Assembly: GCA_014382805.1 (NCBI GenBank)
Contig: JACNIZ010000227.1
Span: forward strand, 1-53,165
Direction of reading: 5' to 3'
DNA: 53,165 bases
Origin: Planctomycetota bacterium
Lineage (GTDB): Bacteria; Planctomycetota; UBA1135
Numbering within the stretch: position 1 is the first letter of the stretch; every line of letters begins with the position of its first letter. The notes below the pieces were generated by a model. It had not been told where the DNA came from. It ran no database searches and saw only the letters and a program-made list of their open reading frames with translations. The translations under genes were made by a program, and so were the position numbers. This document shows positions 11,175-51,038 of this stretch, one piece after another.

Positions 11175-11176
11175 CC

Positions 11177-33606: not shown

Positions 33607-35865
33607 ATGCGTGACCCACTCCACAGGCTGTCGGTAAAGTTCAAGCTTGCATTTGGATTCGTCGGCCTGTGCGTGGGTGCGTTTGGCATTGGTGGCTTTT
33701 TCATCTCGTCGGTTGCGCAGACCGCGCTGACCGACGAAATTATGGCGCGCTTGGATTTTCAAAGCCAAGCCTATGCAACCGATTTGCACGCCAGTTTGGA
33801 AATGCTGACGCGGCGCTCGGAAGACTTCGCCTCCGACGGCTACATCCGCGAGCACCTAGCGAGCATGGTGTCCGAGACGGATGAGGTGGTCATCGCACAA
33901 TTGAAAAAGGAATTGCACCGCCACCTGCGGGTGAACAAATTGCCATTGGAGCCGGCATTTATGGATTTAGCGGTAGTTTCCGCCGTCGGCGAAATGCAAG
34001 TGGCGGTGCTGGATGAAACCAGTGATACGGCGCTGCATTTGGCGAAATGGTCCATCACCCAAGAAACTTCAGCCTCAAGCGAGGTCTTGCCAGGGTCGGC
34101 CAGTCGATCTCCAGGGCTGGTCGTGGCGACGCCAATTTTGGGGCTGCGCTCGGGCCAACCCATCGGCCGCTTGTTGGCGACTATCCGGGCTGGAGTTTGG
34201 GTGACTTTGGCTATGCGCAATGCGCGAATCGGCCGCGATCGCACCATGGAAGATGTCGGCTTGCGGCTTTATGACAATAGCGGTGGCTGTTTGGTCGTGC
34301 CGCCGCGGTTTCTAAATTATGGAGCCGACGGCACCATGTCGTTGCAGGTTCAGGAGGGGCAGGGCTTGGCCGTTTTAGGGCCGTCCGAGGTGCATAATTT
34401 GTCGCGAGCCGGCGTGCGCGGCCAGGACGTCTTTCGCAAGCAATTCCCGATTGGCAATAGTGGTTGGAACGCGGAAGTTTCGATTCACTCGCAGCGAGCA
34501 TTGGCCCCGGTTTCTAGTTTGCAGAGTGATTTTTTCTTCGTTGGCCTAGTTTTGGCCGCGGCTTCGATTTTCTTGCTTTATTTTCCATTGCGCTATTTGG
34601 CCAAGCCGATGGCGATGCTGCGGGATGCGGCGTTGAGTATTCGCGAAGGTGATTTTTCAACGCGCGTGGAAGTGGACTCGGAGGACGAAGTGGGGGATTT
34701 AGCGAAATCGTTTAACTTGATGGCGGCGGCAGTGGAAAGTCGAAATGCTGAATTGGAAAAGAATGCCGCCGACCTTCGGGAACGCCAATTGGAAGTGCTT
34801 GCGCAACGCGATCGTTTGGACCGGGTGATCTCAACCTTGCGCGATGGATTGGTCGTGTTTGGTGCGAATGGAGAGGTGCTGCTCTCGAATCGCGCCGCCA
34901 AGCCGTTATTGGAATTTATTCGCCAAACTCAAGGCGGTGCCAAACAACATCGCAACCGCCGCCAATGTCCATCTGCACAGATTCAATTGGAGGACCATGG
35001 TTGCGAACTGTGTTTGGGCGGCACTAACTTTGATAAGCCACAAACTTGCATGTTGGAGTTTGGTGACCGCATTTTTGACATTCATGCCACGCCACTCCCG
35101 CTCGGCGAAAGCGGCGACTTCGGACGCATTCTGTCGGCCCGCGATATTACCTTGCGAGTGGCCCGAGATGAACGCGAAATCCACCAAGAGCGCTTGGTCG
35201 TATTGGGTGAAGTGGCGGCGGTGATGGCGCATGAATTAAATAATCCGCTTGCTTCGATCAGTATGTTTAATCAATTGATGGAGGCGAAGCTGCCCGCGGA
35301 TTCGGAATTGCACGAAAACATTGATGTGATTAAGCGCAACACCGAAACCTGTAAGCGGGTGATCGGTGAACTGCTTAGTTACGCCAATGACACGACGCCT
35401 GAACTATCATTGGTGGATATACACAGCGTGCTTCAAGACGTCGGCCGGTTCTTGAGGCCGGTGGTAGATCGCAGTCGAGTTGCGTTGAATTTAGAGCTGG
35501 AATCGGAGAATCCTTGGGTGATGGGCGACGAGGTTCAACTGCGCCAAATTTTCGTCAACCTGGTGATGAATGCCACTCAGGCGGTGGCGGCGGGCGGGAA
35601 AATTGACCTGAAATCCTTTGATCAAGGCAGTCAGCTGATCATCGCGGTACGCGACACCGGCAGCGGAATCCCTGCCGACGCCCAGAAAAACATCTTCCGC
35701 GCCTTTTTCACCACAAAAGCGCGCGGCGAAGGCACGGGGTTGGGCCTGCCGACCGCAAAACGAATTGCCGAACTGCACGGTGGCGGAATTGAGTTGATGC
35801 AATCGGACGACCAAGGCACACTCTTCCACGTCCGCTTGCGCCCCTCCCTTGAGGTTTCTGCATGA
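33607..35865 (+). CDS. sensor histidine kinase: TM, approx 270-aa periplasmic domain, TM, HAMP, PAS with 4-Cys insert, HisKA, HATPase
   Basis: TM1 FGFVGLCVGAFGIGGFFI, TM2 FFFVGLVLAAASIFLLYF, HAMP LAKPMAMLRDAALSIREGDF...VGDLAKSFNLMA, H-box AHELNNPL, N-box NLVMNA, G1 DTGSGI, G2 GTGLGL; Cys454/466/469/481. Confidence 0.9.
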   Translation: MRDPLHRLSVKFKLAFGFVGLCVGAFGIGGFFISSVAQTALTDEIMARLDFQSQAYATDLHASLEMLTRRSEDFASDGYIREHLASMVSETDEVVIAQLKKELHRHLRVNKLPLEPAFMDLAVVSAVGEMQVAVLDETSDTALHLAKWSITQETSASSEVLPGSASRSPGLVVATPILGLRSGQPIGRLLATIRAGVWVTLAMRNARIGRDRTMEDVGLRLYDNSGGCLVVPPRFLNYGADGTMSLQVQEGQGLAVLGPSEVHNLSRAGVRGQDVFRKQFPIGNSGWNAEVSIHSQRALAPVSSLQSDFFFVGLVLAAASIFLLYFPLRYLAKPMAMLRDAALSIREGDFSTRVEVDSEDEVGDLAKSFNLMAAAVESRNAELEKNAADLRERQLEVLAQRDRLDRVISTLRDGLVVFGANGEVLLSNRAAKPLLEFIRQTQGGAKQHRNRRQCPSAQIQLEDHGCELCLGGTNFDKPQTCMLEFGDRIFDIHATPLPLGESGDFGRILSARDITLRVARDEREIHQERLVVLGEVAAVMAHELNNPLASISMFNQLMEAKLPADSELHENIDVIKRNTETCKRVIGELLSYANDTTPELSLVDIHSVLQDVGRFLRPVVDRSRVALNLELESENPWVMGDEVQLRQIFVNLVMNATQAVAAGGKIDLKSFDQGSQLIIAVRDTGSGIPADAQKNIFRAFFTTKARGEGTGLGLPTAKRIAELHGGGIELMQSDDQGTLFHVRLRPSLEVSA

Positions 35866-37274
35866 ACAGCGAAATCTACGAAGCCATCGATATTTCAGAA
35901 CTTCGCGTCCTGGTTGTGGATGACGAAGCGGATATTCGTTTGGGCCTGTCGCTGCTGATGGAAACGATTGGTATTCAGGCAACCCAAGCCGCCGACGGTC
36001 GGGAAGCGCTGAACTTGTTCAAACAGCGAGAATTCGACCTAGTGCTTACCGACTTGATGATGCCGGAATTGACCGGCGCCGAGTTATTGGTTGAGGTCAA
36101 AAAGATCAAGCCCGAAGCTGCGGTGGTGCTGTTGACGGGCTTCGGTTCGGTGCAATCGGCGGTGCAATGCATGCAAAATGGAGCTTCGCATTTTCTGAGC
36201 AAACCGTTTGAAAATGCTGAGGTGGTGCGGCTGGTGAAACGCCTAGGATGCCATTTAATCGCCCAACGCAGCCAACCTCAGCAAGGCGTGCAGGTGATCG
36301 CGGAAGACCCCGCAACTCTGCGCATGTTGGAGCTAGTGCGGCGGGTTGCCCCGCGGCCTGTGCCAGTGATGATTGAAGGCGAAAGCGGCGCAGGTAAAGA
36401 AGTTGTGGCGCGTGCGATTTATGAATGGAGCAGTGTGAGTGAAGGACCGTTTTTGGCCGTCAACTGTGCTGCTCTGCCGGACACTCTGCTGGAATCAGAG
36501 CTATTTGGGCATAAAAAAGGCGCCTTCACCGGTGCCGACCGCGACCGTACCGGCGTTTTCGTCAAAGCCCAAGGCGGCACCGTTTTTCTCGACGAAGTGG
36601 CTTCCATGTCGCCCGCCTTCCAGGGCAAACTGCTGCGCGTACTCCAAGAAAAAGTAGTTCGGCCCGTCGGCAGCGATTACGACGTAGCCGTCAACTTCCG
36701 TTTGATTGCGGCGACCAATCGCGACTTAGAGGCATTGGTCAAGCAAGGCAAATTCCGTGAGGATTTGTTCTTCCGCTTGATGGTGGTGCGCATCCATATT
36801 CCGCCGTTGCGCCATCGACCCAAGGACATCCTGCCACTGGCGCTGCACTTTCTGCGCAGCCAATGCCTGATGTGTTTGGGGCCAGGAGCATCAACACCGG
36901 AATTCGCCGAAGATACTATTCAGCGGCTGCTTCGTTACGACTGGCCTGGGAATATTCGCGAATTGGAAAACGCCATCCAACGGGCGTTGATCACCTGTTG
37001 CGGGGAGCGTGTATTGCCTTACCACTTAGGCTTGGATGAGAACGGCTGGCAGTCAGTATTGTCTCAGCCCAGTGAAGAGGTTGAAAGTGAAACTTACGCC
37101 GACGCCAAACGTCGGTCGCTGGAAGCGTTCCAACGTGAGTTCGTGAGTCGCGCCCTGGAAAATTCGCAGGGCAATGTTTCACAAGCGGCAAGCAAGTGTG
37201 GTTTAACACGAGCGGCCTTCCAAAAAATTCTTCGTCAGTTGGATATCGATCGCGAATCCTTCTTGCCTGAATAA
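35862..37274 (+). CDS. sigma-54-dependent response regulator (NtrC family bEBP)
   Basis: REC domain (VVDDE, TDLMMP); AAA+ GESGAGKE, ESELFGH, intact GAFTGA; C-terminal Fis-type HTH GNVSQAASKCGLTRAAFQKILRQL; ATGA overlap with the kinase. Confidence 0.9.
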   Translation: MNSEIYEAIDISELRVLVVDDEADIRLGLSLLMETIGIQATQAADGREALNLFKQREFDLVLTDLMMPELTGAELLVEVKKIKPEAAVVLLTGFGSVQSAVQCMQNGASHFLSKPFENAEVVRLVKRLGCHLIAQRSQPQQGVQVIAEDPATLRMLELVRRVAPRPVPVMIEGESGAGKEVVARAIYEWSSVSEGPFLAVNCAALPDTLLESELFGHKKGAFTGADRDRTGVFVKAQGGTVFLDEVASMSPAFQGKLLRVLQEKVVRPVGSDYDVAVNFRLIAATNRDLEALVKQGKFREDLFFRLMVVRIHIPPLRHRPKDILPLALHFLRSQCLMCLGPGASTPEFAEDTIQRLLRYDWPGNIRELENAIQRALITCCGERVLPYHLGLDENGWQSVLSQPSEEVESETYADAKRRSLEAFQREFVSRALENSQGNVSQAASKCGLTRAAFQKILRQLDIDRESFLPE

Positions 37275-37312
37275 GCTTTTCGTTGCATCGAGTTCCTGCA
37301 CCTCCAGCGCAC

Positions 37313-38692
37313 ATGAATCCTGACTTTGAACAACAAATCCTGCGCTTAGCTCAGGAATTTTTGGACCCCAGCACCTCAGCCGGCAAGCCGGTGGCTCAAC
37401 TGCAACCGCCGCGTGCGGTTTCTAAGCAAATGGGTTTGCATGACGCCATCCATCAGGGCGTCGGACGGGAGGGTACGCTGCGCATACTGAAGGATTATTT
37501 GGACCGCACGACGCGGGTTCGTGATCCGCGCTTCATGGCTCACCAAGTGGCGGTGCCCTACCCCGAATCGGCAATGGGGGAGATGCTGCACAGTTTGACT
37601 AATAACGGCTACGGCACTTATGAAATGGGCCCTCAGGCGGCGGCGTTGGAGCTGGAGTTGGTGGATTGGTTTCTGCAGAAAATCGGCTGGACGCAGGGTA
37701 GCGGACTTCTGACCCACGGTGGATCACTTGCCAACTTGACTGCATTGCTTAGCGCTCGCGCAGCCACCTTTCCACAGGCTTGGCAGGATGGGACGCCATC
37801 GCAAGCGATAATGTTGGCGCCTGAAGTCAGCCATTATTCGGTGCAGCGCTCAGCAGCAATGCTCGGTCTAGGCACCAAGCAGGTGTGGAGCATTCCCGTC
37901 AACGATCGCGGCATGGTTTGCCCCGACGGCTTGGACCGCTTACTCCAAACCGCCGCAGCGCAAGGCAAGCAGGTGATGGCCGTAGTAGCCAACGCCTGTG
38001 CGACGGCAACCGGATTGTTTGACCCACTTCCCGAAATCGTTGCTTTGTGTAAGCAGTATCAAGTTTGGTTACACGTCGACGGCTGTCATGGTGCTTCGGT
38101 TTTGCTGTCGGATAAGCATCGGCATTTGGTGGTTGGTATCGATGGCGCCGATTCAGTGAGTTGGGATGCGCATAAATTATTGGGCTCCAGTGCGCTGTGT
38201 GCGGCGGTGCTTTATCGAGAAGAAGTTTCCGCCTACCGTACCTTTGATCAAGATGAAAGCTATTTATCTAGTGGTGCGGCGGGGGAAGAGCTGCCGTTTT
38301 TGCGTTCGGTGGAATGCACAAAAAGCGGCTTAGGCATGCGTTTGTTCATGGTACTGGCCGTCCATGGTGAACAAAAACTGGCCGCCGATTTGGAGCGGAT
38401 GTTCCAAAATGCACAGGACCTTTATCAACTCATGCAGCAAAATCCTGAGCTTGAGGTCGCGATGCAACCCCAATCCAATATTGTTCTCTTTAGGCCAAAT
38501 GTGCCAAATTCGGCTATCGAGCCTATCCGTCGGCAGTTAATTGATAATGGTAATGCATACCTTTCCGCCGCTGATTTCGACGGCAAGCGTTGGTTGAGAG
38601 CTTGTTTGATGAATCCGGAAACCGGCATGAACCAATTCACTAGCCTGAGCATGGAAGTTTTACGGTTGGCAAAAGCAGTGGGAACTGTGTGA
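37313..38692 (+). CDS. group II pyridoxal-phosphate-dependent decarboxylase
   Basis: GGSLANLTALLSAR, HVDGCHGA, PLP-lysine motif SWDAHK; start ATG 37313 preferred over TTG 37283. Confidence 0.8.
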   Translation: MNPDFEQQILRLAQEFLDPSTSAGKPVAQLQPPRAVSKQMGLHDAIHQGVGREGTLRILKDYLDRTTRVRDPRFMAHQVAVPYPESAMGEMLHSLTNNGYGTYEMGPQAAALELELVDWFLQKIGWTQGSGLLTHGGSLANLTALLSARAATFPQAWQDGTPSQAIMLAPEVSHYSVQRSAAMLGLGTKQVWSIPVNDRGMVCPDGLDRLLQTAAAQGKQVMAVVANACATATGLFDPLPEIVALCKQYQVWLHVDGCHGASVLLSDKHRHLVVGIDGADSVSWDAHKLLGSSALCAAVLYREEVSAYRTFDQDESYLSSGAAGEELPFLRSVECTKSGLGMRLFMVLAVHGEQKLAADLERMFQNAQDLYQLMQQNPELEVAMQPQSNIVLFRPNVPNSAIEPIRRQLIDNGNAYLSAADFDGKRWLRACLMNPETGMNQFTSLSMEVLRLAKAVGTV

Positions 38693-38802
38693 CACGATTT
38701 TGTGGTTAGTTTCAAAATTTTGGCGCTAGATTTCCAAAGAACTCGTTTGCCTGGACGTTGTACTTTTTGTCTACGGAAGCTTGTTCTGCAAATCACCACC
38801 AA

Positions 38803-39816
38803 ATGAGAAACGTTTTTCTACTAGCCAGTGTGGCTTGGACATTTGCCGCCACCGCTACTCCTTCTACTTCACAAGAATCATCCTTAGTTAAAGCTGCCAA
38901 GCAACGAATTGAAGAAATCAATTCCGACCTTTCAAATCCAGCATTCGAATTCACCTACCTTTGCGACCAACGCCTTGCGGTAGTTCATCCCAAGTGCCAC
39001 GATTTAAAATTATTTCTTCCTACCCAAGGGGGGGCCAGTAAGGAAACCGTGCACTTGCAAGATGCGTTCAAACCGATATTTGAATGGTTAGATCAAGATT
39101 ACATGCAGTCTTCGCAATCATTGGCGGCTGAGGCCAGCAGTAAAGACAAAAAGGTGGAAGCGCCGTTGGTTTTGCTTCTCGTTGAGCGCTTGGACCACCG
39201 CTTGCAGTTCAATGTGCGCTACTCCGACGGCGTTTTGCTCGATGACATGCTGATGCATTATTTACTGCCATTGGGCCACGAAGATTGTTTGGGTGTGCCA
39301 TGCGCTTACCCAGGCTCGTGCGCCGATGCCACCAGTTGCCAGTGGGAAATTCATGTTCCTGTGTGCGAGCTTGTGAACCGTGGCACGGCGGAATTGCTGG
39401 AAAAAAAATATGGTGAGCTGCCGCCAGCCATTTTGGGATTGGCCGAGATCGTTGAGGTCGGCGTGACCGGTGGCCACTACGCGTATCGCCATTGGGGCAA
39501 TCAAAATCCGATTCTGCCCCATTCGGAGCGAAATGGCTACGCTGACGAATTCCGCTCAGTTTTGAAAAAACGGTATGCAAAGAAGAAGCTGCGCGAGCCA
39601 TTTTTATTAGAGCTACTGGGCTGGAAAGGCGGATATTTCAGCACCGACAAGTACGCTGCTAGCTGGGGTCTAGGACAAATCTTGCTGGGCCATTTAAAGG
39701 AAACTGGTAGGGGCGAGGATAAGCGCAATTTGGGCGATTTGCTGCTGGCCATAGGGCAGCTAAAAAAAGCAAGTCCGCAGGCTGTGCTCGATGAGATTTT
39801 GAAATTTGATCCCTAG
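38803..39816 (+). CDS. hypothetical secreted protein (Cys-rich central segment)
   Basis: ATG 38803, signal peptide MRNVFLLASVAWTFAATA; CLGVPCAYPGSCADATSCQWEIHVPVC; no domain recognised. Confidence 0.55.
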   Translation: MRNVFLLASVAWTFAATATPSTSQESSLVKAAKQRIEEINSDLSNPAFEFTYLCDQRLAVVHPKCHDLKLFLPTQGGASKETVHLQDAFKPIFEWLDQDYMQSSQSLAAEASSKDKKVEAPLVLLLVERLDHRLQFNVRYSDGVLLDDMLMHYLLPLGHEDCLGVPCAYPGSCADATSCQWEIHVPVCELVNRGTAELLEKKYGELPPAILGLAEIVEVGVTGGHYAYRHWGNQNPILPHSERNGYADEFRSVLKKRYAKKKLREPFLLELLGWKGGYFSTDKYAASWGLGQILLGHLKETGRGEDKRNLGDLLLAIGQLKKASPQAVLDEILKFDP

Positions 39817-39912
39817 TTTGAAAGCACCTTCAAAAAGAAAATTTCGACAAAATATTCTAAAAATTTGCATCGATTGCTATTCGATTGAGTCCAGCTGAAT
39901 GCACTTTTTTGC

Positions 39913-39940
39913 AGCGGTGCATGTTTCAGTATGCACCGCT
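39913..39940. promoter_or_regulatory. candidate upstream activator site 1: perfect 10+10 bp dyad
   Basis: AGCGGTGCAT-GTTTCAGT-ATGCACCGCT; core TGCAT-N8-ATGCA; about 172 bp upstream of the -24 element. Confidence 0.55.
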
Positions 39941-39982
39941 AAGTGGCGGGTTTCCGCCGGTTTTGAGCATGATTGAGCAAGG

Positions 39983-40004
39983 GATGCATATTTAAGTATG
40001 CAGC
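39983..40004. promoter_or_regulatory. candidate upstream activator site 2: TGCAT-N8-ATGCA dyad
   Basis: GATGCAT-ATTTAAGT-ATGCAGC; same core and spacing as site 1, spacer 6/8 identical; about 105 bp upstream of the -24 element. Confidence 0.5.
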
Positions 40005-40097
40005 TGGTATCGGGGAGTTTGCTTTTCTGGATTTGCGTAAATTTCGTAACCTGTTTTAATTTAAAGACTTGGGTTGTTTTGATCTGCGCACGCGCGT

Positions 40098-40114
40098 TGG
40101 CACAAGGGTTGCAT
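40098..40114 (+). promoter_or_regulatory. sigma-54 (-24/-12) promoter in front of the nar operon
   Basis: TGGCAC-AAGGG-TTGCAT matches TGGCAC-N5-TTGCW at every conserved position; followed by GGAGG (40125-40129) and a TTG start at 40138. Confidence 0.6.
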
Positions 40115-40137
40115 TGCGCGCAGCGGAGGCCCAAATC

Positions 40138-40962
40138 TTGCGCTTACTTAGTACTGCCCTCATCTCCCTACTGACGCTCTGCCCGCCTGGATTCAGCCAG
40201 GAACCCGATGCAGAAGCTTTCTTCAAAATCCAGTGTGTTGCCTGCCATAACATCGGCTCGCCGGGCATTCTTGGCCCGGACTTAGCCGGGGTTACCGAGC
40301 GCCAAACACGCGAATGGTTGGTCCCATTCATGATGGACCCGCCAGCCGTATTGGCTAGCGGTGATCCATACGCCCAGGAATTGCTCGCTGCTGCGAATAA
40401 CGTGCAGATGATCAAAATTCCGGGACTGGATGCAGCGATGGCCAACGCGCTGTTGGATTACATCGAAGCTCAGTCGGGTGCAGATCCCAAGCCCGCGCCA
40501 GTCGTTGAGACTGAGCCCTTCACCGCTGAAGAAATCAATAGCGGGCGTGAATATTTCACCGGAGCAAAGAGCTTGGAGAACGGTGCTCCTGCGTGCACCG
40601 CTTGCCACACCACCTACGACATTGGTTCGTGGGGCGGGGGTCGCTTAGGTCCAGACCTAACCCACGTTTCCCAGCGCTTGCAAGGCCGCGCTGGACTGCA
40701 AGCCTGGCTCACTATGCCGGCATCGGCGGTGATGACACCGATTTTCAGCAAGCAACGCTTGACGAAATCAGAAATCCGCGACTTGGTCGCATTCCTTGAA
40801 TCGGAAAACGAAAAGAGCCCAAGTGAGGCTCCGGCAGTAACCGCTTCCTTCTTCAGCGCGGGCGTAATAGTCGCCATTCTGCTTCTGGTCATGTTCGGAC
40901 TCATCTGGAAGAACCGCTACCGTTCCACCCGGATCCCAATGGTGGAGAGAGCTAAACGATGA
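40138..40962 (+). CDS. narC: membrane-anchored dihaem c-type cytochrome, NarC-like first gene of the nar operon
   Basis: Two CxxCH (CVACH, CTACH), N-terminal signal peptide from TTG 40138 ([15 protein letters not shown]), C-terminal [26 protein letters not shown] overlap with narG. The ORF-track start at 40069 would lie upstream of the promoter and adds a non-signal-like extension. Confidence 0.7.
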
Positions 40963-43900
40963 ACACTGATAACTCCCTTCCTTGGATTAAAGACTCCGCC
41001 GAGCCCGAAACGCGCGCTTGGGAAGAGTTTTACCGCAACCGTTGGCAGTACGACAAGATCGTACGCTCAACTCACGGTGTGAACTGTACCGGGTCGTGCT
41101 CGTGGCAGATTCACGTTAAAGATGGAATCGTCACCTGGGAACTGCAGGCGATTGATTATCCGAAGATTGATAAGAACGTTCCGCCGCACGAACCACGCGG
41201 TTGTCAGCGCGGAATTTCTTACTCATGGTACTTGTACAGCCCGTTGCGGGTTAAGTACCCATACGTGCGTGGTGCGTTGTTGGACTTCTGGCGTACTGCC
41301 AAAACTGCTCATAACAACGACCCGGTTGCTGCTTGGGCTTCGATCCAAAATGATCCGGAAAAACGCGCTCGTTATCAGCGCGCTCGCGGCAAAGGCGGAT
41401 TCCGTCGCACTTCTTGGGATACTGCGAAGGAAATCATTGCTGCGTCGGCCGTTCATACCATTAAGGATTACGGTCCTGACCGCATCGCTGGTTTCTCGCC
41501 GATTCCTGCCATGTCGCAAGTTAGCTATGCAGCTGGCGCGCGCATGTTGCAGTTGATGGGTGGTCTGTCTCTGTCCTTCTACGATTGGTACTGCGACCTT
41601 CCAAGTGCATCGCCAGAGACTTGGGGCGAGCAAACCGACGTCAACGAATCAGCTGACTGGTACCACGCCAAGATGTTGGCGGTCATGGGTTCCAACCTGA
41701 ACATGACGCGCACACCTGACGTGCACTTTGCTGCTGAAGCGCGTCACAACGGCACCAAAATGGTGGTGTTCTCGCCGGACTTCAACCAGGTTGCTAAGTA
41801 CGCCGACGAATGGGTGTCCTTGAACGCTGGTCAAGATGGCGCTTGGTGGATGGCAGTCAACCACGTCATCCTCAAGGAGTTCCACCACGAGAAGCAAACC
41901 CCGTACTTCATTAATTACTGCAAGAAGTACACCGATTCGCCTTACTTGGTCGAGCTGACCGAGAAGAATGGATCCTGGGAACCTGGCCAAATGCTGCGTG
42001 CTGGTCGCATGGCTGAGTACGCCGATGAAGAGAATGGCGAATGGAAGTTCCTGCAATGGGACGCCGGCGACGACAGGCCGAAGATGCCGATGGGCTCCTC
42101 TGGTCACCGTTGGGCTGAGAAGAAGGGTCAATGGAACTTGCTTCCTAAAGACGGCAAAGACGGTTCAGACATCGATGCCGAATTGACCTTCCTGGAAGTT
42201 TGCGACGGCATCAAACAAGTCCGTTTTGATGACTTCGCCGAAGGTGAATCCAAAAAGCGCGGCGTGCCTGTGCGCACCGTCAACACCGCCGACGGTCCGG
42301 TTACCGTCGCAACTGTTTATGACTTGCTGATGGCGCAATACGGCATCAGTCGCGGTTTGGATGGGGACTACCCAACCAGCTACGACGACGACATGGTTTA
42401 CACCCCGGCGTGGGGTGAGCGTTACTGTGGTATCGACCGCTCCAACATCATCAAGTTCGCGCGCGAATGGGCGTCGACTGCTGAACATACGAATGGTAAG
42501 TGCACCGTCATCATTGGCGCTGGTATTAATCACTGGTACCACGGCAACTTGATGTACCGCGCGGCGATCAACGCGTTGATGTTCTGCGGCTGCGTAGGCG
42601 TCAACGGTGGTGGTTTGGCTCACTACGTGGGTCAGGAAAAGCTGGCTCCGGGCGAACCTTGGGGCAACATTGCTTTTGCCAAGGACTGGGTGCCTGCGGT
42701 GCGTTTGCAGAATGCTCCGTCTTGGCACTACGTCAACACCGACCAGTGGCGTTACGAAAAGAGCTTCCGCGATTACCACACGGTGCCGGAAGATCATCCC
42801 GCAGGCAGCATTTCCGTCTGCCACACCATTTCCGTTCCATTGCGTTCGGTCAAGAACGGCTGGATGCCTTTCTACCCGCAGTTTGATCGCAGTCCGATTA
42901 CACTGTGCGAAGATGCGCGCAACGCCGGCGCCATGGATGAAGCTGGCATTGTTAACTACGTGGTCGACAAACTGAAGAGCAAGGAGCTCAAGTTTGCGGT
43001 TGAGAAGCCTGACCACAGCGAAAACTGGCCGCGTTTGTGGTTCATCTGGAGGGGTAACGCTCTGATGAGTTCGGCCAAGGGCCACGAGTACTTCCTGGAC
43101 CACTACCTCGGCACGCACAACAATAAAATCGCTGAAGAACTTGCTGAAGGCAGCGTTAAAGCGGTTGAGTTTTTGAAGACTGCGCCGAAGGGCAAGATGG
43201 ACCTGGTAGTCGACTTGAACTTCCGCATGGATACGTCGGCGCTGTATTCGGACATCGTTCTGCCTGCCGCAACTTGGTACGAAAAGGATGACCTGAACAC
43301 CACCGACATGCACGCTTACGTGCACCCACTTTCGGAAGCAGTTCCGCCATGTTGGGAATCTAAGTCGGACTGGGACATCTTTGCGGAGATCTCCAAAGAG
43401 TTTGCGAAGCTGGCTGGTGAAGCCTTCCCGGGCGAAGTGGAAGACATCGTCGCTTCTCCGCTGGCGCACGACACTGCTGCCGAAATCGCGCAGCCACAGA
43501 TGTTGGATTGGGACAAGGGGCAGTGCGAAGCCATCCCTGGCAAGACCATGCCTGGCTTGAAAGTAGTCAAGCGTGATTACAGCAAGCTATACCACCAGTT
43601 CATCGCTTACGGTCCGCTAGCTCGGGAAAAAGGAATTGGAGCTCACGGCACCCACTACCACATTGACGATTTCTACGATGAAATGGTCGAGCACGGTCGT
43701 ACCACCGAGTTCGATGGCAAAAAATACCCATCACTACTGACTGGTAAGGACGCTTGTAACGCCATCTTGAACCTAGCGTCGGTAACCAATGGTGAACTTG
43801 CTTATCGCTCCTACAAAAACATGGAGGAGAAAGTTGGTTTCCCACTGGCGGATGAGCTAGCTGGCAAGACGCGTTCCGTGCGCATGCAATTTGAAGACAT

Positions 43901-44615
43901 TCAAGCGCAGCCACGACGTCAGCATAACTCGCCGATGTGGTCGGCCAAGATCGACGACGGACGTACTTACTCACCGTTTAGCTACAACATCGAGCACATG
44001 GTTCCATGGCGGACGTTGACGGGTCGTCAGCACTTCTACTTGGATCACCCGGGCTACATTCAGTTCGGTGAACACGTGCCGACTTACAAGCCGAAGCCAT
44101 TGCCAGTTCAATACGCTGACATGCGCATGTCGGATGACAGCGGTATCGAAAAGGGCGACACGCTGTGCTTGAACTACTTGACTCCGCATGGCAAGTGGCA
44201 CATTCACTCGACCTACGGGGACAACCATCGCATGACAACTCTGTCACGCGGCGTGGAGCCGTTCTGGATTAACGATAAGGAAGCGAATTCCATCGGCATC
44301 AACGATAACGATTGGGTTGAGGTGCACAACGACCACGGCGTAGTGGTCACGCGAGCTGCAGTCAGCGCGCGTATTCCAAAGGGGATCTGCATCATTTACC
44401 ACTCTCCTGAAAGGACTTACTCAGTACCTAAATCGCCATTGCGCGGCAAACGACGTGCTGGTGGCCACAACAGTCTGACCCGTACCAGACTCAAGCCGAA
44501 CTTGTTGATCGGTGGTTACGGACAGTTCACTTACCACTTCAACTACTGGGGACCGATCGGTTGCAACCGTGACACCCACGTGTTGGTTCGCAAACTCCCC
44601 AAACTCATCTGGTAA
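40959..44615 (+). CDS. narG: respiratory nitrate reductase alpha subunit (cytoplasmic type, no Tat signal)
   Basis: 1218 aa; [26 protein letters not shown]0 motif and overall NarG-like sequence. Confidence 0.97.
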
Positions 44616-44633: not shown

Positions 44634-46121
44634 ATGGACGTCCGCTCACAAGTTTCGATGCTGTTCCACATGGACAAATGCATCGGTTGCCATACCTGCA
44701 GCATCGCCTGCAAAAACATCTGGACTGACCGCAAAGGTACTGAGTACATGTGGTGGAACAACGTGGAGACGAAGCCGGGAACCGGTTATCCGACGCGTTG
44801 GGAAGACCAGCTTAATTACAAAGGTGGTTGGGAAGTCGTTGATGGCGAATTGCAGCTGAAATCAACCAGCCGCAGCAAAATCATCCCCAACATCTTTCAC
44901 AATCCGTCCATGCCGACCATGGACGATTACTACGAGCCTTGGACATATAAGTACTCGGATCTGTTCGACGCCCCTGAAGGCGACGACCAGCCGACTGCGA
45001 TGCCCATCTCGATGGTGACTGGCGAATACATCGACGTCAAAGCCGGCCCAAACTGGGACGACGACCTCGGTGGCTCGCAAGTCTACGCAGAAAACGATCC
45101 GAACTTGGAAGCGCTCACTCCGGAGCTGCGCCAGCAAATGTTTGAGATCGAGCGGTTGGCGTTTTTCTACCTGCCGCGCATGTGTAACCACTGCTTGAAC
45201 CCTGCGTGTGTAGCTGCATGTCCGTCCGGCGCGTTGTACAAGCGTGGGGAAGATGGCATTGTTTTGGTTAACCAAAAGCAGTGTCGCGGTTGGCGCTCCT
45301 GTGTGCCGGCTTGTCCTTACAAGAAGGTTTACTTCAATTGGTCGACCGGCAAGTCGGAGAAGTGCATTTTGTGCTATCCACGCCTAGAGACCAAGCAGCC
45401 GCCAGCTTGCCACCACTCTTGCGTCGGTCGGATTCGTTACTTAGGCAACGTGCTTTACGACGCCTCGCGCATCGAAGAAATCGCAGGATGCCCTGAGAAT
45501 GAATTGATCAGCAAGCAGCGCGAACTGATTTTGGATCCGAACGATCCGGAAGTCATCGAAGCCGCTAAGGCCAATGGCATTCCGGACGACGTGATTACCT
45601 CGGCGCAGCAATCACCAACTTACAAGTTCGTCATGGAGTGGGGGCTGGGCTTGCCATTGCACCCTGAGTTCCGCACCTTGCCGATGTTGTTCTACGTTCC
45701 GCCGCTTTCGCCGGTACTGTCGTCGCGCAACGGCGAGGCAACCCGCAACAACGGCACCGACCTGCTGCACGAAGTCGACGAGGCACGCGTACCGATTCAA
45801 TACCTCGCCGAGATCTTTGGTGCCGGTAACACCGAGCCGGTCCGCTACGCCCTGCGCAAGCAATACGCAGTACGCATGTGGCGACGTCACGTCACCGTTG
45901 GCGACGTCGATGAAGCTACTGCCAAAGCCGCGCTGGTCGAAGCCGATTGCACTGTAGATCAAGCTGAAGCCATCTACCGCTTGACCTCTTTGGCCAAGTA
46001 CGAAGAGCGTTTCATCATTCCACCGACGCACCGCGAGCAAGCCATGGAGTTGTTGAAAGACCCCATGGAAAACAAGCAGGACACTGGTTTCGGTTTCATT
46101 GAACCTCCAATAAGAGTGTGA
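44634..46121 (+). CDS. narH: respiratory nitrate reductase beta subunit
   Basis: CIGCHTCSIAC, CNHCLNPACVAACP, CRGWRSCVPACPY, CILCYPR Fe-S motifs. Confidence 0.97.
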   Translation: MDVRSQVSMLFHMDKCIGCHTCSIACKNIWTDRKGTEYMWWNNVETKPGTGYPTRWEDQLNYKGGWEVVDGELQLKSTSRSKIIPNIFHNPSMPTMDDYYEPWTYKYSDLFDAPEGDDQPTAMPISMVTGEYIDVKAGPNWDDDLGGSQVYAENDPNLEALTPELRQQMFEIERLAFFYLPRMCNHCLNPACVAACPSGALYKRGEDGIVLVNQKQCRGWRSCVPACPYKKVYFNWSTGKSEKCILCYPRLETKQPPACHHSCVGRIRYLGNVLYDASRIEEIAGCPENELISKQRELILDPNDPEVIEAAKANGIPDDVITSAQQSPTYKFVMEWGLGLPLHPEFRTLPMLFYVPPLSPVLSSRNGEATRNNGTDLLHEVDEARVPIQYLAEIFGAGNTEPVRYALRKQYAVRMWRRHVTVGDVDEATAKAALVEADCTVDQAEAIYRLTSLAKYEERFIIPPTHREQAMELLKDPMENKQDTGFGFIEPPIRV

Positions 46122-46657
46122 TCATGACCATCGATCAATCCATCTATGGTTCGCTGGCTCGGCTGCTGGATTACCCAGCCGCCGGCTACTGCGAAGCCGC
46201 TGAAGAGTGGATCGCCCAAATCGGCAATCAATGCCCCGTTGCTGGCGAGGCGCTACAACCGTTTTTGGCCTTCGTCCGTGAACGCAGCGCCGAGAAGTTG
46301 GAAGAGCTGTACTGCATCACTTTCGACAACAGCCAAACCGCGGCATTGGAGCTAGGTTGGCATGTTTATGGGGAAACTTATGAGCGCGGTGCATTTTTAG
46401 TTCAAATGCGCGCGCTGCTTCGCGAACACGGCGTACCCGAGCGTTCCGAATTGCCCGACCACCTCAGTTTGGTTTTGCAGGCCATGAGCCTTTGCAGTGA
46501 GGAGCACGCGCTGAAACTGGCCGCCGACACGGTCAAACCTGCCGTCCGCAAGATCCTGGTCAGCTTGGCCGCGGATCAAAACCCATACGAACCAGTGCTG
46601 GACGCCGTGCTTCAAGTCACCCGCCAACACGCCCAGCAATCCTACAACCACAGCTGA
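46118..46657 (+). CDS. narJ: nitrate reductase molybdenum cofactor assembly chaperone
   Basis: 179 aa TorD/NarJ-like, positioned between narH and narI; start GTG 46118 (overlaps the narH stop) or ATG 46124. Confidence 0.85.
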   Translation: MIMTIDQSIYGSLARLLDYPAAGYCEAAEEWIAQIGNQCPVAGEALQPFLAFVRERSAEKLEELYCITFDNSQTAALELGWHVYGETYERGAFLVQMRALLREHGVPERSELPDHLSLVLQAMSLCSEEHALKLAADTVKPAVRKILVSLAADQNPYEPVLDAVLQVTRQHAQQSYNHS

Positions 46658-46660
46658 TCC

Positions 46661-47350
46661 ATGTACGACATCCTCTTCTTCGTAGCCTTGCCCTACGTGG
46701 CTTTGGTTTTGTTCTTCCTGGTCGGCATCACCCGCTACCGCCGACGTCCGTTTTCGGTTACTAGTCTGTCATCGCAGTTCCTAGAAAACCGCAAGCACTT
46801 TTGGAGCACGGTTCCCTTCCACTACGGAGTGATTGGAGTTTTGCTACTGCACCTTGCTGGCTTGATGATTCCTGACACGATGCTGGCATGGAACGCCGCC
46901 CCGGTGAGGTTGGTGGTCTTGGAAGTCACAGGATTGGCACTCGGCTTGATGGCATTGTTTGGCTTGGTCAACTCGATGATTCGGCGGGTGCAAAGCCCGC
47001 GCATACGCATCATTACCAACAAGTCCGATTGGGTGCTGCTGGCCTTGCTGCTGATTCAAATCGTGCTTGGCATCTTGGTGGCCATCTACAACGGCTGGGG
47101 CAGCTCTTGGTTCGCAGCCAGTGCCACACCTTGGTTGTGGTCTTTGTTCACCCTCAACCCGGACTTGAGCTACGTGGCTGGCATGCCATTGCTCGTCAAG
47201 CTGCACATCATTAATGCCTTCTTGATGATCGGCTTCTTCCCGTTCACCAGGTTGATACACGTCATCGTGATTCCTAACCCTTACCTCTGGCGCAAAACTC
47301 AAGTTGTGCGTTGGAACCGCGATCGTAAGCGCCTCCGCATCCGCGACTAA
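46661..47350 (+). CDS. narI: respiratory nitrate reductase gamma subunit (dihaem b)
   Basis: 229 aa, 5 TM, conserved His pairs (FHYGVIGVLLLH, KLHIINAF...RLIH). Confidence 0.95.
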   Translation: MYDILFFVALPYVALVLFFLVGITRYRRRPFSVTSLSSQFLENRKHFWSTVPFHYGVIGVLLLHLAGLMIPDTMLAWNAAPVRLVVLEVTGLALGLMALFGLVNSMIRRVQSPRIRIITNKSDWVLLALLLIQIVLGILVAIYNGWGSSWFAASATPWLWSLFTLNPDLSYVAGMPLLVKLHIINAFLMIGFFPFTRLIHVIVIPNPYLWRKTQVVRWNRDRKRLRIRD

Positions 47351-47451: not shown

Positions 47452-48957
47452 ATGTCCGCAAGTACGAAAAAATTTAACCCGACGCAATTTTTGTCATTCA
47501 AGGGTCCATACAAGATCCTGCATATGACCTGGTTTGCGTTCTTCCTAACCTTCATGGCTTGGTTCAACATGGCGCCTTTAGCGGCAGCCATGAAGATTGA
47601 TCTTGGCTTGACCGACGGCGACCTGAAGGTCTTGATGATCTGTAACGTGGCTCTGACGATTCCAGCGCGAATCATCATCGGCATGCTGTTAGATCGTTTT
47701 GGGCCGAGAAAGGTTTTCTCCGGCTTGTTGATTGTGATGTCTATACCGTGTTTCATATTCGCGGTATCGAACACCATGATCCAGTTGGTCATTACTCGAT
47801 TGCTACTGGGCATTATTGGTGCCGGCTTCGTCATCGGCATCCGCATGGTTGCAGAGTGGTTCCCACCGAAAGACGTGGGGGAGGCAGAAGGTATTTACGG
47901 TGGCTTCGGAAACTTTGGTTCCGCGGCTTCGGCGTTCACCTTGCCTACCATTGCAGTTCTGGCCACCACCTGGTTTGGCGCAGAGCAAGGCTGGCGCTAC
48001 TCCATCGGCTTGACCGGTGCCATGTGTTTGATTTATGGCTTCATTTACTACGCAAGTGTAAGTGACACGCCTCCAGGTAAGACTTATCACAAGCCGAAGC
48101 GCGCTGGCGCAATGGAAGTCACTTCGATGCCGTCGTTGTATGGTTTGATTTTCATGCAGGTGCCGATGATTTTGGCTTTGGGCCTTTTGGTGTGGAAACT
48201 CCACAACTTCGGCTTCTTGCCGACCCAAGGCGCGCACATTGGATACGGTGCTTTGGTCAGCATTTTGATTTTCCAGGCCTACAAGGCATGGACCGTCAAT
48301 GCGCCGCATATTCGCGAAGGCTATAGCGAAGGCGACAAATACGAATTCCGTCAAGTCGCCATTTTGGACCTTGCTTACTTCGTGACATTCGGCTCGGAAT
48401 TGGCTGTGGTTTCCATGCTGCCGCTTTTCTTCAAGCGAACCTTCGACCTTTCTCTGGCTCAAGCAGGCATGATCGCGGCATCCTTCGCGTTCATGAACTT
48501 ATTCGCCCGTCCGATGGGTGGCTTTCTTTCCGACCGGTTGGGTTCGCGTCGCAAGACTCTAACTTTCCTGCTTGCAGGTTTAGCCGTCGGTTACTTCCTA
48601 ATGAGCCGTATCAATAGCTCCTGGCCAATTCCATTGGCTGTTGGCGCAACCATGTTGTGCTCCTTCTTCGTGCAAGCGGGTGAAGGCGCAGTATTCGCAG
48701 TGGTTCCATTGGTCAAGAAACGCGTCACTGGTCAAATCGCCGGCATGGTAGGTGCCTACGGCAACGTTGGCGCGGTGGTATTGCTGACTGTGTTCAGCTT
48801 TGTCACACCGGATCAATTCTTCTTAACCATCAGCGGTTGTGCCATCGTGTGCATGATTGCATCCATGGCGTTGAAAGAGCCCAAAGGTTCCTTCGCTGAC
48901 GCCCACCATGACGAAGCAGCTCAAAACGATGCTGCTGTAACCGGAGTAACCGGATGA
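47452..48957 (+). CDS. narK1: MFS nitrate/nitrite porter (NNP family, NarK1-type)
   Basis: 501 aa, 12 TM, NNP signature GGFGNFG. Confidence 0.9.
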   Translation: MSASTKKFNPTQFLSFKGPYKILHMTWFAFFLTFMAWFNMAPLAAAMKIDLGLTDGDLKVLMICNVALTIPARIIIGMLLDRFGPRKVFSGLLIVMSIPCFIFAVSNTMIQLVITRLLLGIIGAGFVIGIRMVAEWFPPKDVGEAEGIYGGFGNFGSAASAFTLPTIAVLATTWFGAEQGWRYSIGLTGAMCLIYGFIYYASVSDTPPGKTYHKPKRAGAMEVTSMPSLYGLIFMQVPMILALGLLVWKLHNFGFLPTQGAHIGYGALVSILIFQAYKAWTVNAPHIREGYSEGDKYEFRQVAILDLAYFVTFGSELAVVSMLPLFFKRTFDLSLAQAGMIAASFAFMNLFARPMGGFLSDRLGSRRKTLTFLLAGLAVGYFLMSRINSSWPIPLAVGATMLCSFFVQAGEGAVFAVVPLVKKRVTGQIAGMVGAYGNVGAVVLLTVFSFVTPDQFFLTISGCAIVCMIASMALKEPKGSFADAHHDEAAQNDAAVTGVTG

Positions 48958-50672
48958 GTACCCTAGAAAAGTGGGATGTCGAAGACCAGGCATTCTGGGA
49001 TTCCACCGGCAAAAAGGTAGCCACGCGCAACCTTTGGATCTCCATTCCCAGTTTGCTAGTCGGATTTGCCGTCTGGTTGATGTGGGGCATCATTACGGTG
49101 CAAATGAAAAACCTGGGTTTCACCTTCGGCAAGTCGCCGGAGGAGGCAATGGGTTTGCTGTTCATGTTGCCAGCAATTGCTGGCCTGACCGGCGCCACGC
49201 TACGCATCCCTAGTACCTTCTTCATTCGCCTGGCGGGTGGTCGAAACACCATCTTCTTCACCACGGCGCTGTTGATGATCCCGGCACTGGGTGCGGCCTT
49301 TGCGCTGCAAAACCCTGAAACGCCGTTCAGGGTTTTCATGCTGCTGGCATTCCTGTCAGGCATCGGCGGTGGCAACTTTGCCTCTTCCATGTCCAACATC
49401 AGCTTCTTCTACCCGAAAAAGGTACAAGGTTACGCGCTGGGCATGAATGCGGGCTTAGGCAACTTCGGTGTGACCACCATGCAGATCTTGATTCCGCTGG
49501 GCATGACTGCGGCAATTGTCGGCCCGTTAAGCGGTGAACCGGGCAAACTCGCAACCACCAGCGGTACTATCTTCAAGCAAGTCGCGGCCGGTTCCGACAC
49601 CTGGTTGTCCAGCGCCGGTTGGGTTTGGATGTACTGGTTGATCCCGCTGGCCTTTTTCGGTTGGTTCAAGCTCAACAACATCAAAACCGAAGCCGTCACT
49701 CCCGGCCTCAGGTCGCCGATGGTTTCTTTCGGTCGCATCACTTGGCTGCTGTTGATCGGTTTTGCTACTGCTGCTGCTGGCCTGTACTTCATCCTGACTT
49801 ACCTCACGATGACTTGGGTGAAGTGGATTGTGTTGCCATGCGTCATTGCCGCAACCGTTTTCTTGATAAAGGCTTTGTCGCCAGGCGAAATTAAGGGCAA
49901 CCTTGATCGCCAGTACAAGATCTTCAACAACAAGCACACCTGGGTTATGACCGTCATCTACACGATGACCTTTGGTTCATTCATCGGGTTCTCCGCTGCC
50001 GTTGGCCTGGCCATCAAATTCATCTTTGGTGTCATGCACTATGAGGTGGCAGGCTTGAGCGAAAAGATTGCCGCAGGTGCTGGCGTCTTTGTCGACCCTA
50101 AGGTCGTGGAAGCCGCCCAAAAAGCATTGGCTACCGCTACCGAAAACGGCGACGTCTGGATTCACATCAACAACCCGAATGGTCCCGCTACATTCATGTA
50201 CGTTTGGGTAGGCGCCTTCGTCGGTGCTCTGATTCGTCCGGTTGGTGGCATGATCGCTGACAAGGTTGGTGGCGCAATTGTGACCCAAGTGGTTGCCGTC
50301 GTCATGACCCTTTCTGCGGTTGGCGTTGGCTACTACTCATCGCTGGCGTACCAGGCGAACGCCCCAGAAGAGTTTTTCATACCCTTCTTCGTGCTGATCG
50401 TAGTTCTCTTCGCAGCCACTGGCGTCGGCAATGGCTCTACCTTCCGCACCATTTCAATGGTCTTCAACGCAGAACAAGCTGGCCCAGTGTTGGGTTGGAC
50501 GTCGGCAGTTGCAGCTTACGGCGCCTTCTTGGTTCCAAAGCTAATCGGTGAGCAAATGAAAGCAGGTGCTCCCGAAATTGCGATGTATGGCTTGGCGGTG
50601 TTCTACGCCATCTGTGCCATACTCAATTGGTGGTACTACCTCGGTCCTAAGGCTGAGTTTAAGAACCCTTGA
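48954..50672 (+). CDS. narK2: MFS nitrate/nitrite porter (NarK2/NarT-type), unusually long
   Basis: 572 aa, N-terminal KWDVEDQAFWDSTGKKVATRNLWISIPSLL, NAGLGNFG signature; ATGA overlap with narK1. Confidence 0.9.
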   Translation: MSTLEKWDVEDQAFWDSTGKKVATRNLWISIPSLLVGFAVWLMWGIITVQMKNLGFTFGKSPEEAMGLLFMLPAIAGLTGATLRIPSTFFIRLAGGRNTIFFTTALLMIPALGAAFALQNPETPFRVFMLLAFLSGIGGGNFASSMSNISFFYPKKVQGYALGMNAGLGNFGVTTMQILIPLGMTAAIVGPLSGEPGKLATTSGTIFKQVAAGSDTWLSSAGWVWMYWLIPLAFFGWFKLNNIKTEAVTPGLRSPMVSFGRITWLLLIGFATAAAGLYFILTYLTMTWVKWIVLPCVIAATVFLIKALSPGEIKGNLDRQYKIFNNKHTWVMTVIYTMTFGSFIGFSAAVGLAIKFIFGVMHYEVAGLSEKIAAGAGVFVDPKVVEAAQKALATATENGDVWIHINNPNGPATFMYVWVGAFVGALIRPVGGMIADKVGGAIVTQVVAVVMTLSAVGVGYYSSLAYQANAPEEFFIPFFVLIVVLFAATGVGNGSTFRTISMVFNAEQAGPVLGWTSAVAAYGAFLVPKLIGEQMKAGAPEIAMYGLAVFYAICAILNWWYYLGPKAEFKNP

Positions 50673-50786: not shown

Positions 50787-50862
50787 GTTGCGTGGGGGGA
50801 TCCCCGGCGGCAAGGATTCCGCTTCGCTCCATCAAAAGCCGCCGGGGATCCCCCCACGCAAC
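50787..50862. repeat. hairpin element 1: 24-bp perfect stem around a 28-nt conserved loop
   Basis: GTTGCGTGGGGGGATCCCCGGCGG (50787-50810), loop CAAGGATTCCGCTTCGCTCCATCAAAAG, exact complement 50839-50862. Confidence 0.9.
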
Positions 50863-51038
50863 TCACATTAATCAGATATCGTTGAACAGTTTAATCGTTG
50901 GACGAAGGGAGCACCTGTTGGGTGGAGATAGGTTTAATGCGGTTCATGATTGAGGATTTATTGCGTTAATCCTCCCCTCGGTGAACTACTTTTTGGGTCT
51001 GAGTCCTCTGTTCCTGTGGCAGAATATGTGAGTATGTA

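Follow-up and report, generated by a model that had tools for sequence, protein, structure and literature searches.

A putative sigma-54-dependent promoter and enhancer upstream of a planctomycete respiratory nitrate reductase operon

Introduction

Denitrification begins with respiratory nitrate reductase, which also stands at the start of nitrite supply to anammox. To our knowledge, almost everything known of nar regulation comes from Proteobacteria, Firmicutes and Thermus, and in every known case housekeeping-sigma promoters are used. Literature searches linking sigma-54 or RpoN with narG or nar returned no paper describing a sigma-54-dependent nar system. A review from 2021 on how nitrate respiration is controlled transcriptionally makes no mention of RpoN, NtrC or enhancers, and in the accessible part of a 2025 cross-phylum survey of sigma-54 regulons, nar is not among the Planctomycetota targets.

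The closest described systems share some aspects with the locus considered here. In Nitrospira, the nxrAB operons adjoin sigma-54-dependent regulators, a link drawn from genome data; no conserved enhancer architecture at nxrAB is reported in the available sections of these papers (PMC6606698, PMC7522533). NorR acts with sigma-54 at norVW/norAB, where it binds tandem inverted repeats upstream of a –24/–12 promoter (PMC1274295). In Brucella, the NtrC-family regulator and HAMP–PAS kinase of the NtrYX pair are needed for narGHIJK expression, according to work cited in PMC9409073, and over-expressed AtoC gives ChIP signals near narG and narZ of Escherichia coli (PMC3118216). The PAS domain of NreB holds an O2-labile [4Fe–4S] cluster (PMC8139620). 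In the Thermus narCGHJIKT operon, the gene encoded first specifies NarC, a membrane-bound periplasmic diheme cytochrome c (PMC7694296).

Here, we examine a 53,165-bp stretch of DNA from a Planctomycetota bacterium (contig JACNIZ010000227.1; the entire stretch is referred to as the window). A preliminary description had placed a sigma-54 promoter and two upstream dyads in front of a nar operon in this DNA. Our comparison of orthologous loci indicates that the 321-bp region preceding narC is likely a sigma-54-dependent promoter with an enhancer, controlled by the neighboring pair of a histidine kinase and an enhancer-binding protein (EBP).

The narC–nar operon and its neighboring regulators

The genes concerned are all encoded on the + strand:

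33607–35865, +, sensor histidine kinase, 752 aa (TM1, double-Cache, TM2, HAMP, PAS, HisKA, HATPase)
35862–37274, +, NtrC-type response regulator/bEBP, 470 aa (REC with D64, AAA+ with GAFTGA, HTH_8)
between the activator gene and narC, +, PLP-dependent decarboxylase gene
between the activator gene and narC, +, gene for a 352-aa protein without a family match
40138–40962, +, narC-like gene, membrane-anchored periplasmic diheme cytochrome c, 274 aa, first gene of the operon
40959–44615, +, narG (Pfam, NCBIfam)
44634–46121, +, narH (Pfam, NCBIfam)
46118–46657, +, narJ (Pfam, NCBIfam)
46661–47350, +, narI (Pfam, NCBIfam), completing the narGHJI respiratory nitrate reductase
47452–48957 and 48954–50672, +, two NarK-family nitrate/nitrite transporter genes (NCBIfam TIGR00886; conserved synteny)

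The downstream genes had been described as a respiratory nitrate reductase operon headed by a cytochrome, and the Pfam and NCBIfam assignments agree. The narC-like gene opens at the TTG at 40138, and its product has a signal peptide, two CxxCH motifs and a C-terminal transmembrane helix; the heme-motif residues C33/C36/H37 and C153/C156/H157 are invariant. The narC stop overlaps the narG start, and narC is translationally coupled to narGHJI–narK–narK, and the two narK genes are probably the end of the operon. Compared by features rather than by sequence, the gene order with a diheme cytochrome in first position is that of a Thermus-type narCGHJIK operon.

The activator has the domain content of a bEBP (PF00072, PF00158, PF25601 and PF02954), its C-terminal HTH being of the Fis type. 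Its translation contains the phospho-acceptor aspartate, the Walker A sequence GESGAGKE and the sequence KKGAFTGAD, and G[AST]F[TS]GA is retained in each of 26 activator orthologues. The EBP gene overlaps the kinase stop by 4 nt. Both regulators fall below the curated NCBIfam equivalog cut-offs of the named families: the activator scores 373.8 bits against 558.6 for ntrC, 371.6 against 714 for AtoC, 335.9 against 760 for ZraR and 314.9 against 600 for NtrX, and the kinase scores 200.6 against 646 for AtoS. The kinase and activator belong to an unnamed family; on the kinase side, it comprises about 90 full-length orthologues and has sharp limits.

The 2.8 kb separating the activator gene from narC consists of the two inserted genes listed above, which are found only in the subclade comprising the window, L001 and L081–L086. 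In L087, whose NarC is 65% identical, the activator gene lies directly upstream of narC.

A probable sigma-54 promoter element precedes narC

Two features mark the proximal end of the intergenic region:

40098–40114, +, sigma-54 (–24/–12) promoter TGGCAC-AAGGG-TTGCAT (motif scan, conservation)
40125–40129, +, GGAGG as ribosome-binding site, 8 nt ahead of the TTG codon; six close loci all have GGAGGC

As had been noticed beforehand, the promoter element is an exact match to TGGCAC-N5-TTGCW; it is the single exact match in the window, where shuffled sequences lead one to expect 0.16. The GG and GC dinucleotides are exactly 10 bp apart, as the sigma-54 spacing demands, and the element is on the correct strand and correctly positioned, ending 24 nt before the narC start codon. 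Counting from C(–12) at 40112 gives a predicted transcription start near 40124; this position and those of the ribosome-binding site and the TTG codon agree with the earlier assignment. Relaxing the pattern to one mismatch yields seven matches in the window compared to 3.4 expected from shuffles. The six additional sigma-54-like matches (1111, 9891, 11678, 19277, 28409 and 46935) were rejected, being close to chance in number and mostly within long ORFs.

The element is also conserved. It is kept as TGGCAC(G)-N4/5-TTG(C/T/A) in 28 loci, and a TGGCAC-N5-TTG element is found 35–96 nt before narC at every locus with the kinase–EBP pair. All of the pair-bearing loci except L090 and L092 have at most one mismatch to the –24/–12 element; the L090 promoter has two, and in L092 the automated pick is poor and TGGCAT-N5-TTG is the better element. 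The consensus compiled over orthologous loci, TGGCACG-N4-TTGCT, is a textbook sigma-54 motif. In about one-third of these loci, however, T or A stands in place of the –12 C (TTGT/TTGA), which we count against the sigma-54 reading.

No Sigma54 domain (rpoN) is present among the scanned ORFs of the window, and the GAFTGA-bearing EBP leads us to infer that the genome has an rpoN gene. A search for the FNR box TTGAT-N4-ATCAA, which in the E. coli model is located near –41.5 of a sigma-70 promoter, gives no match with two or fewer mismatches in 39817–40137, and no Rfam family matches the intergenic region.

Could nar be transcribed mainly by read-through, or from an unrecognized housekeeping-sigma promoter, with the –24/–12 element being auxiliary or non-functional? 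The genes from the kinase to narK lie on one strand with short gaps, a point in favor of read-through. A promoter scan of 39500–40400 finds no sigma-70-like promoter, but planctomycete housekeeping promoters are poorly defined, so this negative result is weak evidence. Against this explanation, 28 loci from different phyla keep the –24/–12 element, always at a fixed short distance from narC, but not the DNA on either side of it, and hairpins and terminator-like structures intervene between the upstream gene and the promoter. We therefore regard predominant read-through or housekeeping transcription as very unlikely and favor the sigma-54 promoter.

Paired dyads form a candidate enhancer

Upstream of the promoter lie the following candidate activator sites, none of which is assigned a strand:

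39913–39940 (core dyad 39918–39935), putative distal upstream activator site AGCGGTGCAT-N8-ATGCACCGCT, centered at –173
39985–40002, putative proximal upstream activator site TGCAT-ATTTAAGT-ATGCA, centered at –106
39896–39913, TGAATGCAC-N5-TTGCA, a third and weak candidate site that differs from the dyad at two positions, centered at –195

The two exact TGCAT-N8-ATGCA dyads reported in the preliminary description are the only exact copies in the window, and both are in the intergenic region upstream of narC. Shuffles predict 0.10 exact dyads, and none of 100 shuffled sequences contains two. The distal dyad is, as had also been recorded, embedded in a perfect 10+10 palindrome (39913–39922/39931–39940). 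The reported separation of 67 bp between dyad centers holds, whereas the distances to the promoter are 173 and 106 bp when measured from the GG, rather than 172 and 105 bp.

Aligning the window with five close loci (NarC 65–77% identical) leaves only the dyads, the –24/–12 element (TGGCAC-N5-TTGC), the GGAGGC and the start codon as conserved blocks. The GGTGCAT/ATGCACC of the distal dyad is invariant in all six loci while its spacer varies, and the proximal GTGCAT-N8-ATGCA is likewise invariant, again with an unconserved spacer. The weak third site is partly kept in sister loci as TGAATGCA-N6-TGCAC. The consensus of 35 compiled sites is G-n-TGCAT-N8-ATGCA-n-C. Counting sites with up to two mismatches, the dyads are 66–70 bp apart in 14 loci; in L008 they are 79 bp apart. 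This spacing is wider than in textbook NtrC-type enhancers and no conserved sequence lies between the dyads, points that count against the enhancer assignment. [quoted passage not shown]

The distribution of the dyads is highly uneven. The 4,048 bp of intergenic DNA between EBP and narC contain ten exact copies, versus three in 1.24 Mb of other fetched sequence, an enrichment of about 1000-fold. Two of the three outside copies also precede nar, in L001, a contig not long enough to reach the regulator. Where genes have been inserted between EBP and narC (the window, L005/L006, L081–L085 and L089), the dyads adjoin the promoter rather than the EBP gene. Because they stay with the promoter, the dyads would act on nar rather than in autoregulation of the kinase and EBP genes. 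In L091, a second promoter of this kind, with dyad and –24/–12 element, is seen ahead of a transporter gene. The arrangement is that of bEBP upstream activator sites: inverted repeats about 70–200 bp upstream, co-occurring with a cognate EBP gene. The pattern on its own, outside its promoter and gene context, is unspecific and thus uninformative about additional regulon members. A metagenome scan for TGCAT-N8-ATGCA-N46–54-TGCAT-N8-ATGCA produced at least 120 matches; among the matches listed, almost all are AT-rich simple repeats or tandem arrays and none is associated with nar.

The distal palindrome also has the character of an RNA structure. It folds to a stable hairpin (–29.9 kcal/mol, z = –4.9, RNA fold) and is followed by T5–T7 in L081, L083, L085 and L001, and a terminator scan on L081 and L085 flags it as terminator-like. 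These features would suit a mere intrinsic terminator of the upstream gene, leaving only the proximal dyad, or neither, as an activator site. In the window, however, no T-run directly follows the palindrome. The stem GGTGCAT/ATGCACC is invariant instead of covarying and equals the proximal site, which has no T-run, and dyad pairs 66–70 bp apart but lacking a T-run are found elsewhere, some of them directly behind the EBP gene itself (L012, L039, L087 and L077). A terminator-only role is highly improbable on these grounds. We take the enhancer role of the distal dyad to be primary because the stem is invariant and identical to the proximal site and because the dyad pair exists without a T-run. 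Within the subclade of the window, ending the upstream transcript may be a second function of the distal dyad, and such a dual role is plausible.

The remaining intergenic features have less to recommend them:

39944–39966, +, small GC hairpin GGCGGGTTTCCGCC followed by GGTTTTG; not conserved and not flagged by the terminator scan

This hairpin is a possible weak terminator of the upstream gene. The TTGAGCA repeat (39963 and 39973) and the CCAGCTG/CAGCTGG bracket (39891–39897 and 40001–40007) pointed out in the preliminary description are present, but neither is conserved in any sister locus of the six-locus alignment. Both were rejected as functional parts, and are probably chance occurrences, for this reason. 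The tract between enhancer and promoter is AT-rich with few conserved bases (GTAA, TTTA), and inspection by eye reveals no convincing match to the IHF site WATCAA-N4-TTR between them.

Promoter and dyads co-occur with the regulator pair

A profile search for the narC-like cytochrome in contigs representing one genome per species retrieved 80 loci; Planctomycetota MAGs account for most of them, and Acidobacteriota, Bacteroidota and other groups for some. In about 70 of the 80, narG or narGHJI comes next after the cytochrome gene. Several related MAGs bear names pointing to the oxygen-minimum zones of the Arabian Sea and the eastern tropical North Pacific. Orthologues of the kinase and EBP are located upstream of narC in 17 loci, directly so in most; in L010, the regulator copy is incomplete, at the contig edge. 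Further loci were added, eight via close narC homologues and four via distant kinase homologues, and the kinase–EBP–narC linkage is found in all eight and all four. The distant kinases are only 34–44% identical (40% for that of a Marinimicrobia MAG) and are still followed by EBP–narC–narG. Three of these four loci have the same promoter and dyad layout; L090 is weak in both elements.

The co-occurrence of the cis elements with the regulator genes is strict. TGGCAC-N5-TTG precedes narC in 27 further narC–nar loci with the kinase–EBP pair, most of which also carry a single GTGCAT-N8-ATGCAC dyad or two of them. Among the pair-bearing loci of the genome collection, the promoter is found in 17 of 17 and the dyad in 13 of 17. 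As controls, we considered 41 narC–nar loci without the pair, each having 3.5 kb or more of DNA upstream, none with an EBP-like gene in the locus. Not one of the 41 has a dyad, even allowing one mismatch, and the combination of promoter and dyad is absent from all of them. The preliminary description had proposed that the NtrC-type activator probably binds the dyads, making nar sigma-54 dependent, and had said that the idea would fall if orthologous nar upstream regions lacked the motif. The opposite is seen, with promoter and dyads recurring together, and the comparative co-occurrence lends support to the proposal.

The near-invariant recognition helix of the EBP (CGLTRAAFQKILRQL, 26 orthologues) fits the invariant dyad half-site. 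A dyad within one mismatch is nevertheless lacking at L002, L009, L036, L054 and L090 although the promoter is present (weakly in L090), and this counts against the model. Covariation of the HTH with the dyad was considered and rejected as an explanation for L002, L009, L036 and L054, given that the recognition helix is nearly invariant.

It is also conceivable that the dyads are operators for another factor, for example an Rrf2/NsrR-type protein responsive to nitrogen oxides, with the EBP acting elsewhere. NsrR half-sites also contain ATGCAT, an Rrf2 gene is directly upstream of the kinase gene in L089 and a hemerythrin gene occupies that place in L090. Most loci, however, have no Rrf2 gene nearby. 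The dyads are seen only with the kinase–EBP pair, at none of the 41 loci otherwise, and their location 60–215 bp upstream of a sigma-54 promoter is an enhancer rather than an operator position. The NsrR spacer is short and AT-rich, whereas the 8-nt dyad spacer is variable in sequence, and the recognition helix that matches the half-site is that of the EBP. Ownership of the dyads by such a factor is thus highly improbable, and the EBP is the preferred candidate for the protein that binds them.

The kinase has two predicted sensory domains

To consider the input to this system, we examined AlphaFold2 models of the kinase built on a 55-sequence alignment. The periplasmic region (residues 36–306; mean pLDDT 92.2) is modeled as a double-Cache fold between two transmembrane helices, the organization of a dCache sensor kinase. 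Foldseek matches it with probability 1.00 to the double-Cache sensors KinD, DctB, PctA/B and TlpC, and some kinase orthologues match PF02743 directly. R70, D73, F74, S76, D77, G78, R81, H106 and K111 of this domain are invariant among the 55 sequences. Because conserved basic residues are present, the domain seems suited to an anionic ligand; nitrate or nitrite would be our guess.

The cytoplasmic region (residues 385–525; mean pLDDT 85.5) is modeled as a PAS fold with matches to the LOV, FixL and SrrB PAS domains. C454, C466, C469 and C481 are invariant in 55 of 55 sequences, at identities down to 35%. By analogy with NreB, this quartet may hold a redox- or O2-sensitive metal or Fe–S center. 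Note that the cysteine spacing in NreB differs from the C-x11-C-x2-C-x11-C of this kinase. Based on the two modeled folds and the conserved residues, the kinase probably combines a periplasmic small-molecule input (dCache) with a cytoplasmic O2 or redox input (PAS), and sensing of both a periplasmic ligand and O2 or redox state is plausible.

A model for activation of nar transcription

We infer regulator binding, sigma-54 dependence and the signal in the following scheme. Sigma-54 RNA polymerase would bind TGGCAC-N5-TTGCAT (40098–40114) as a closed complex. The co-transcribed histidine kinase (33607–35865) would phosphorylate the NtrC-type response regulator (35862–37274), whose dimers are proposed to occupy both GTGCAT-N8-ATGCAC dyads (–106 and –173) and possibly the weak third site at –195. 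The regulator would then oligomerize, contact sigma-54 through DNA looping and open the promoter with ATP, and transcription is expected to proceed from near 40124 through narC–narGHJI–narK–narK. On the strength of these genomic patterns, a sigma-54 two-component nar switch would represent a canonical mechanism applied to a new regulon in several mostly uncultivated phyla.

A broader proposal is tentative, and we consider it less likely than not: that the kinase–EBP pair is a widespread master switch governing nitrate respiration across uncultivated members of several phyla, Planctomycetota and Marinimicrobia among them, and also in lineages of oxygen-minimum zones, and that one kinase integrates nitrate/nitrite (dCache) and O2 (four-cysteine PAS Fe–S) with output via sigma-54. 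All-or-none, leak-free control is typical of enhancer-dependent promoters. If the proposal is correct, nar would be under such control and a single protein would cover the jobs of FNR and NarX. A dedicated sigma-54 switch would work by another control logic, in which the off-state is tight and activation requires ATP. The promoter, the two operators and the kinase domains offer handles for predicting the onset of nitrate reduction in these organisms, and the locus suggests an annotation rule for the approximately 90 kinases and partner activators that now bear generic names only.

Comparison with known systems

The regulatory pair is most like NtrB–NtrC/glnAp2, DctBD, ZraSR and AtoSC, in which a REC–AAA+(GAFTGA)–HTH_8 activator is encoded beside its kinase, and the dyads are similarly placed about 100–200 bp upstream of a TGGCAC-N5-TTGC promoter. 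The NtrC site, TGCACC-N5-GGTGCA, and the window dyad have the half-site core GTGCA/TGCAC in common. The differences are (i) the target, here a respiratory nitrate reductase operon, (ii) the 18-bp dyad TGCAT-N8-ATGCA, (iii) a separation of 66–70 bp between strong sites in the nar loci, as opposed to about 30 bp in NtrC-type systems, and (iv) the kinase, with its dCache and four-cysteine PAS domains.

The preliminary description had called the arrangement undescribed. This stands for nar in the literature that we searched, but Nitrospira nxrAB is a genomic precedent. In both cases, a molybdoenzyme interconverting nitrate and nitrite is genomically linked to sigma-54 activators. The Nitrospira enzyme is, however, a periplasmic NXR of a nitrite oxidizer, whereas the window encodes a cytoplasmic NarGHI, and the Nitrospira regulators are NifA-like or other EBPs whereas that of the window is of the REC type with a dCache kinase. 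NorR is similar in being a sigma-54 activator at an operon for nitrogen-oxide respiration or detoxification, but it senses NO directly through a GAF domain, has no kinase, recognizes three copies of GT-N7-AC and targets NO reductase. In the case of NtrYX, the window regulator scores below the NtrX cut-off and NtrY is without a dCache domain. NtrX is not known to have a functional GAFTGA, and we know of no –24/–12 promoter documented at Brucella nar.

The characterized nar regulators (FNR and NarXL in E. coli, NreABC in staphylococci and DnrST with DrpAB in Thermus) operate with housekeeping sigma factors and CRP/FNR-, NarL- or NreC-type activators, unlike the system proposed here. Other aspects connect the locus to these systems. 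The operon content matches that of Thermus narCGHJIKT and the four-cysteine PAS domain recalls the [4Fe–4S] O2 sensor of NreB. The nar logic itself, induction by anoxia plus nitrate, is probably common to the window and the characterized systems.

The narC start and the region upstream

The automatic ORF call starts narC, the dihaem cytochrome c gene, at TTG 40069, as does the public protein cluster P0001 (297 aa), and this would place the promoter within the gene. The start at 40138 is favored by the lengths of homologues (274–277 aa), the ribosome-binding site and the signal peptide.

Between the activator gene and narC (37283–39816), the window carries an inserted PLP-dependent decarboxylase gene and a gene for a 352-aa protein without a family match. 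The two-gene insertion is confined to the window's subclade (the window and related loci L081–L086 and L001); in most relatives outside this subclade, narC lies directly downstream of the activator gene.

The distal putative activator dyad forms a stable hairpin in the window (within 39913–39966) and in sister loci L081 (7774–7801) and L085 (7772–7799). In the sister loci the hairpin is followed by T5–T7 and is terminator-like by scan; the window instead has, by 39966, another small GC hairpin and then TTTT in place of this T run. The distal dyad may thus combine two roles, enhancer site and terminator, in a single element.

Sigma-54-type promoters at related loci

In locus L091, which lies on a 6.5 Mb contig, sigma-54-type promoters occur at two places (11792–12216 and 14013–14187), one before an MFS/DoxX transporter gene and the other before narC. 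Both are accompanied by a dyad near -61; the regulon can therefore include a second transcription unit. Four other narC–nar loci, which lack the kinase–activator pair (L057, L064, L074 and L078), have a different sigma-54-like element, TGGCACG-N4-TGTGC, 100–240 bp upstream of narC, and L078 encodes a divergent enhancer-binding protein (556–2138; identity only 33%). Sigma-54 control of nar may have had more than one origin.

Flanking genes

A complete cbb3-type cytochrome oxidase cluster lies in the same window.

Content of the cbb3 cluster
6430–14911: fused ccoN–ccoO, ccoP, ccoG, FixH, DsbD_2-type protein, FixI-type P-ATPase

The presence of this cluster alongside nar gives the organism both high-affinity O2 respiration and Nar. 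Neither the dyad nor an exact -24/-12 element was found in 6430–14911.

Downstream of narK are two hairpin-forming stretches (50790–50870 and 51040–51110). A common inner stretch of ~40 nt, ggcggcaaggattccgcttcgctccatcaaaagccgcc, occurs in both, inverted in one relative to the other; the two could represent either a small repeat element or a terminator pair. Beyond them, a strongly G-rich ORF (51155–53165; GC skew +0.3 to +0.4) runs past the window end and contains an SNNW motif, typical of penicillin-acylase-type Ntn hydrolases; being open-ended, this ORF is absent from the automatic ORF calls.

The sensor kinase

In three distant relatives, the genes just upstream of the kinase are all linked to NO or O2.

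Genes just upstream of the kinase
L089, 7548–7979: Rrf2-family regulator
L090, 7245–7961: hemerythrin
L091, 5806–7964: divergent COX1 and cytochrome c pair

The kinase PAS domain itself contains four cysteines, C-x11-C-x2-C-x11-C (residues 454–481; window 34966–35049). Their invariance across 55 orthologues, at identities down to 35%, suggests that the quartet holds a metal or Fe–S centre. The arrangement is reminiscent of the cysteine quartet of NreB, but the spacing of the cysteines is different.
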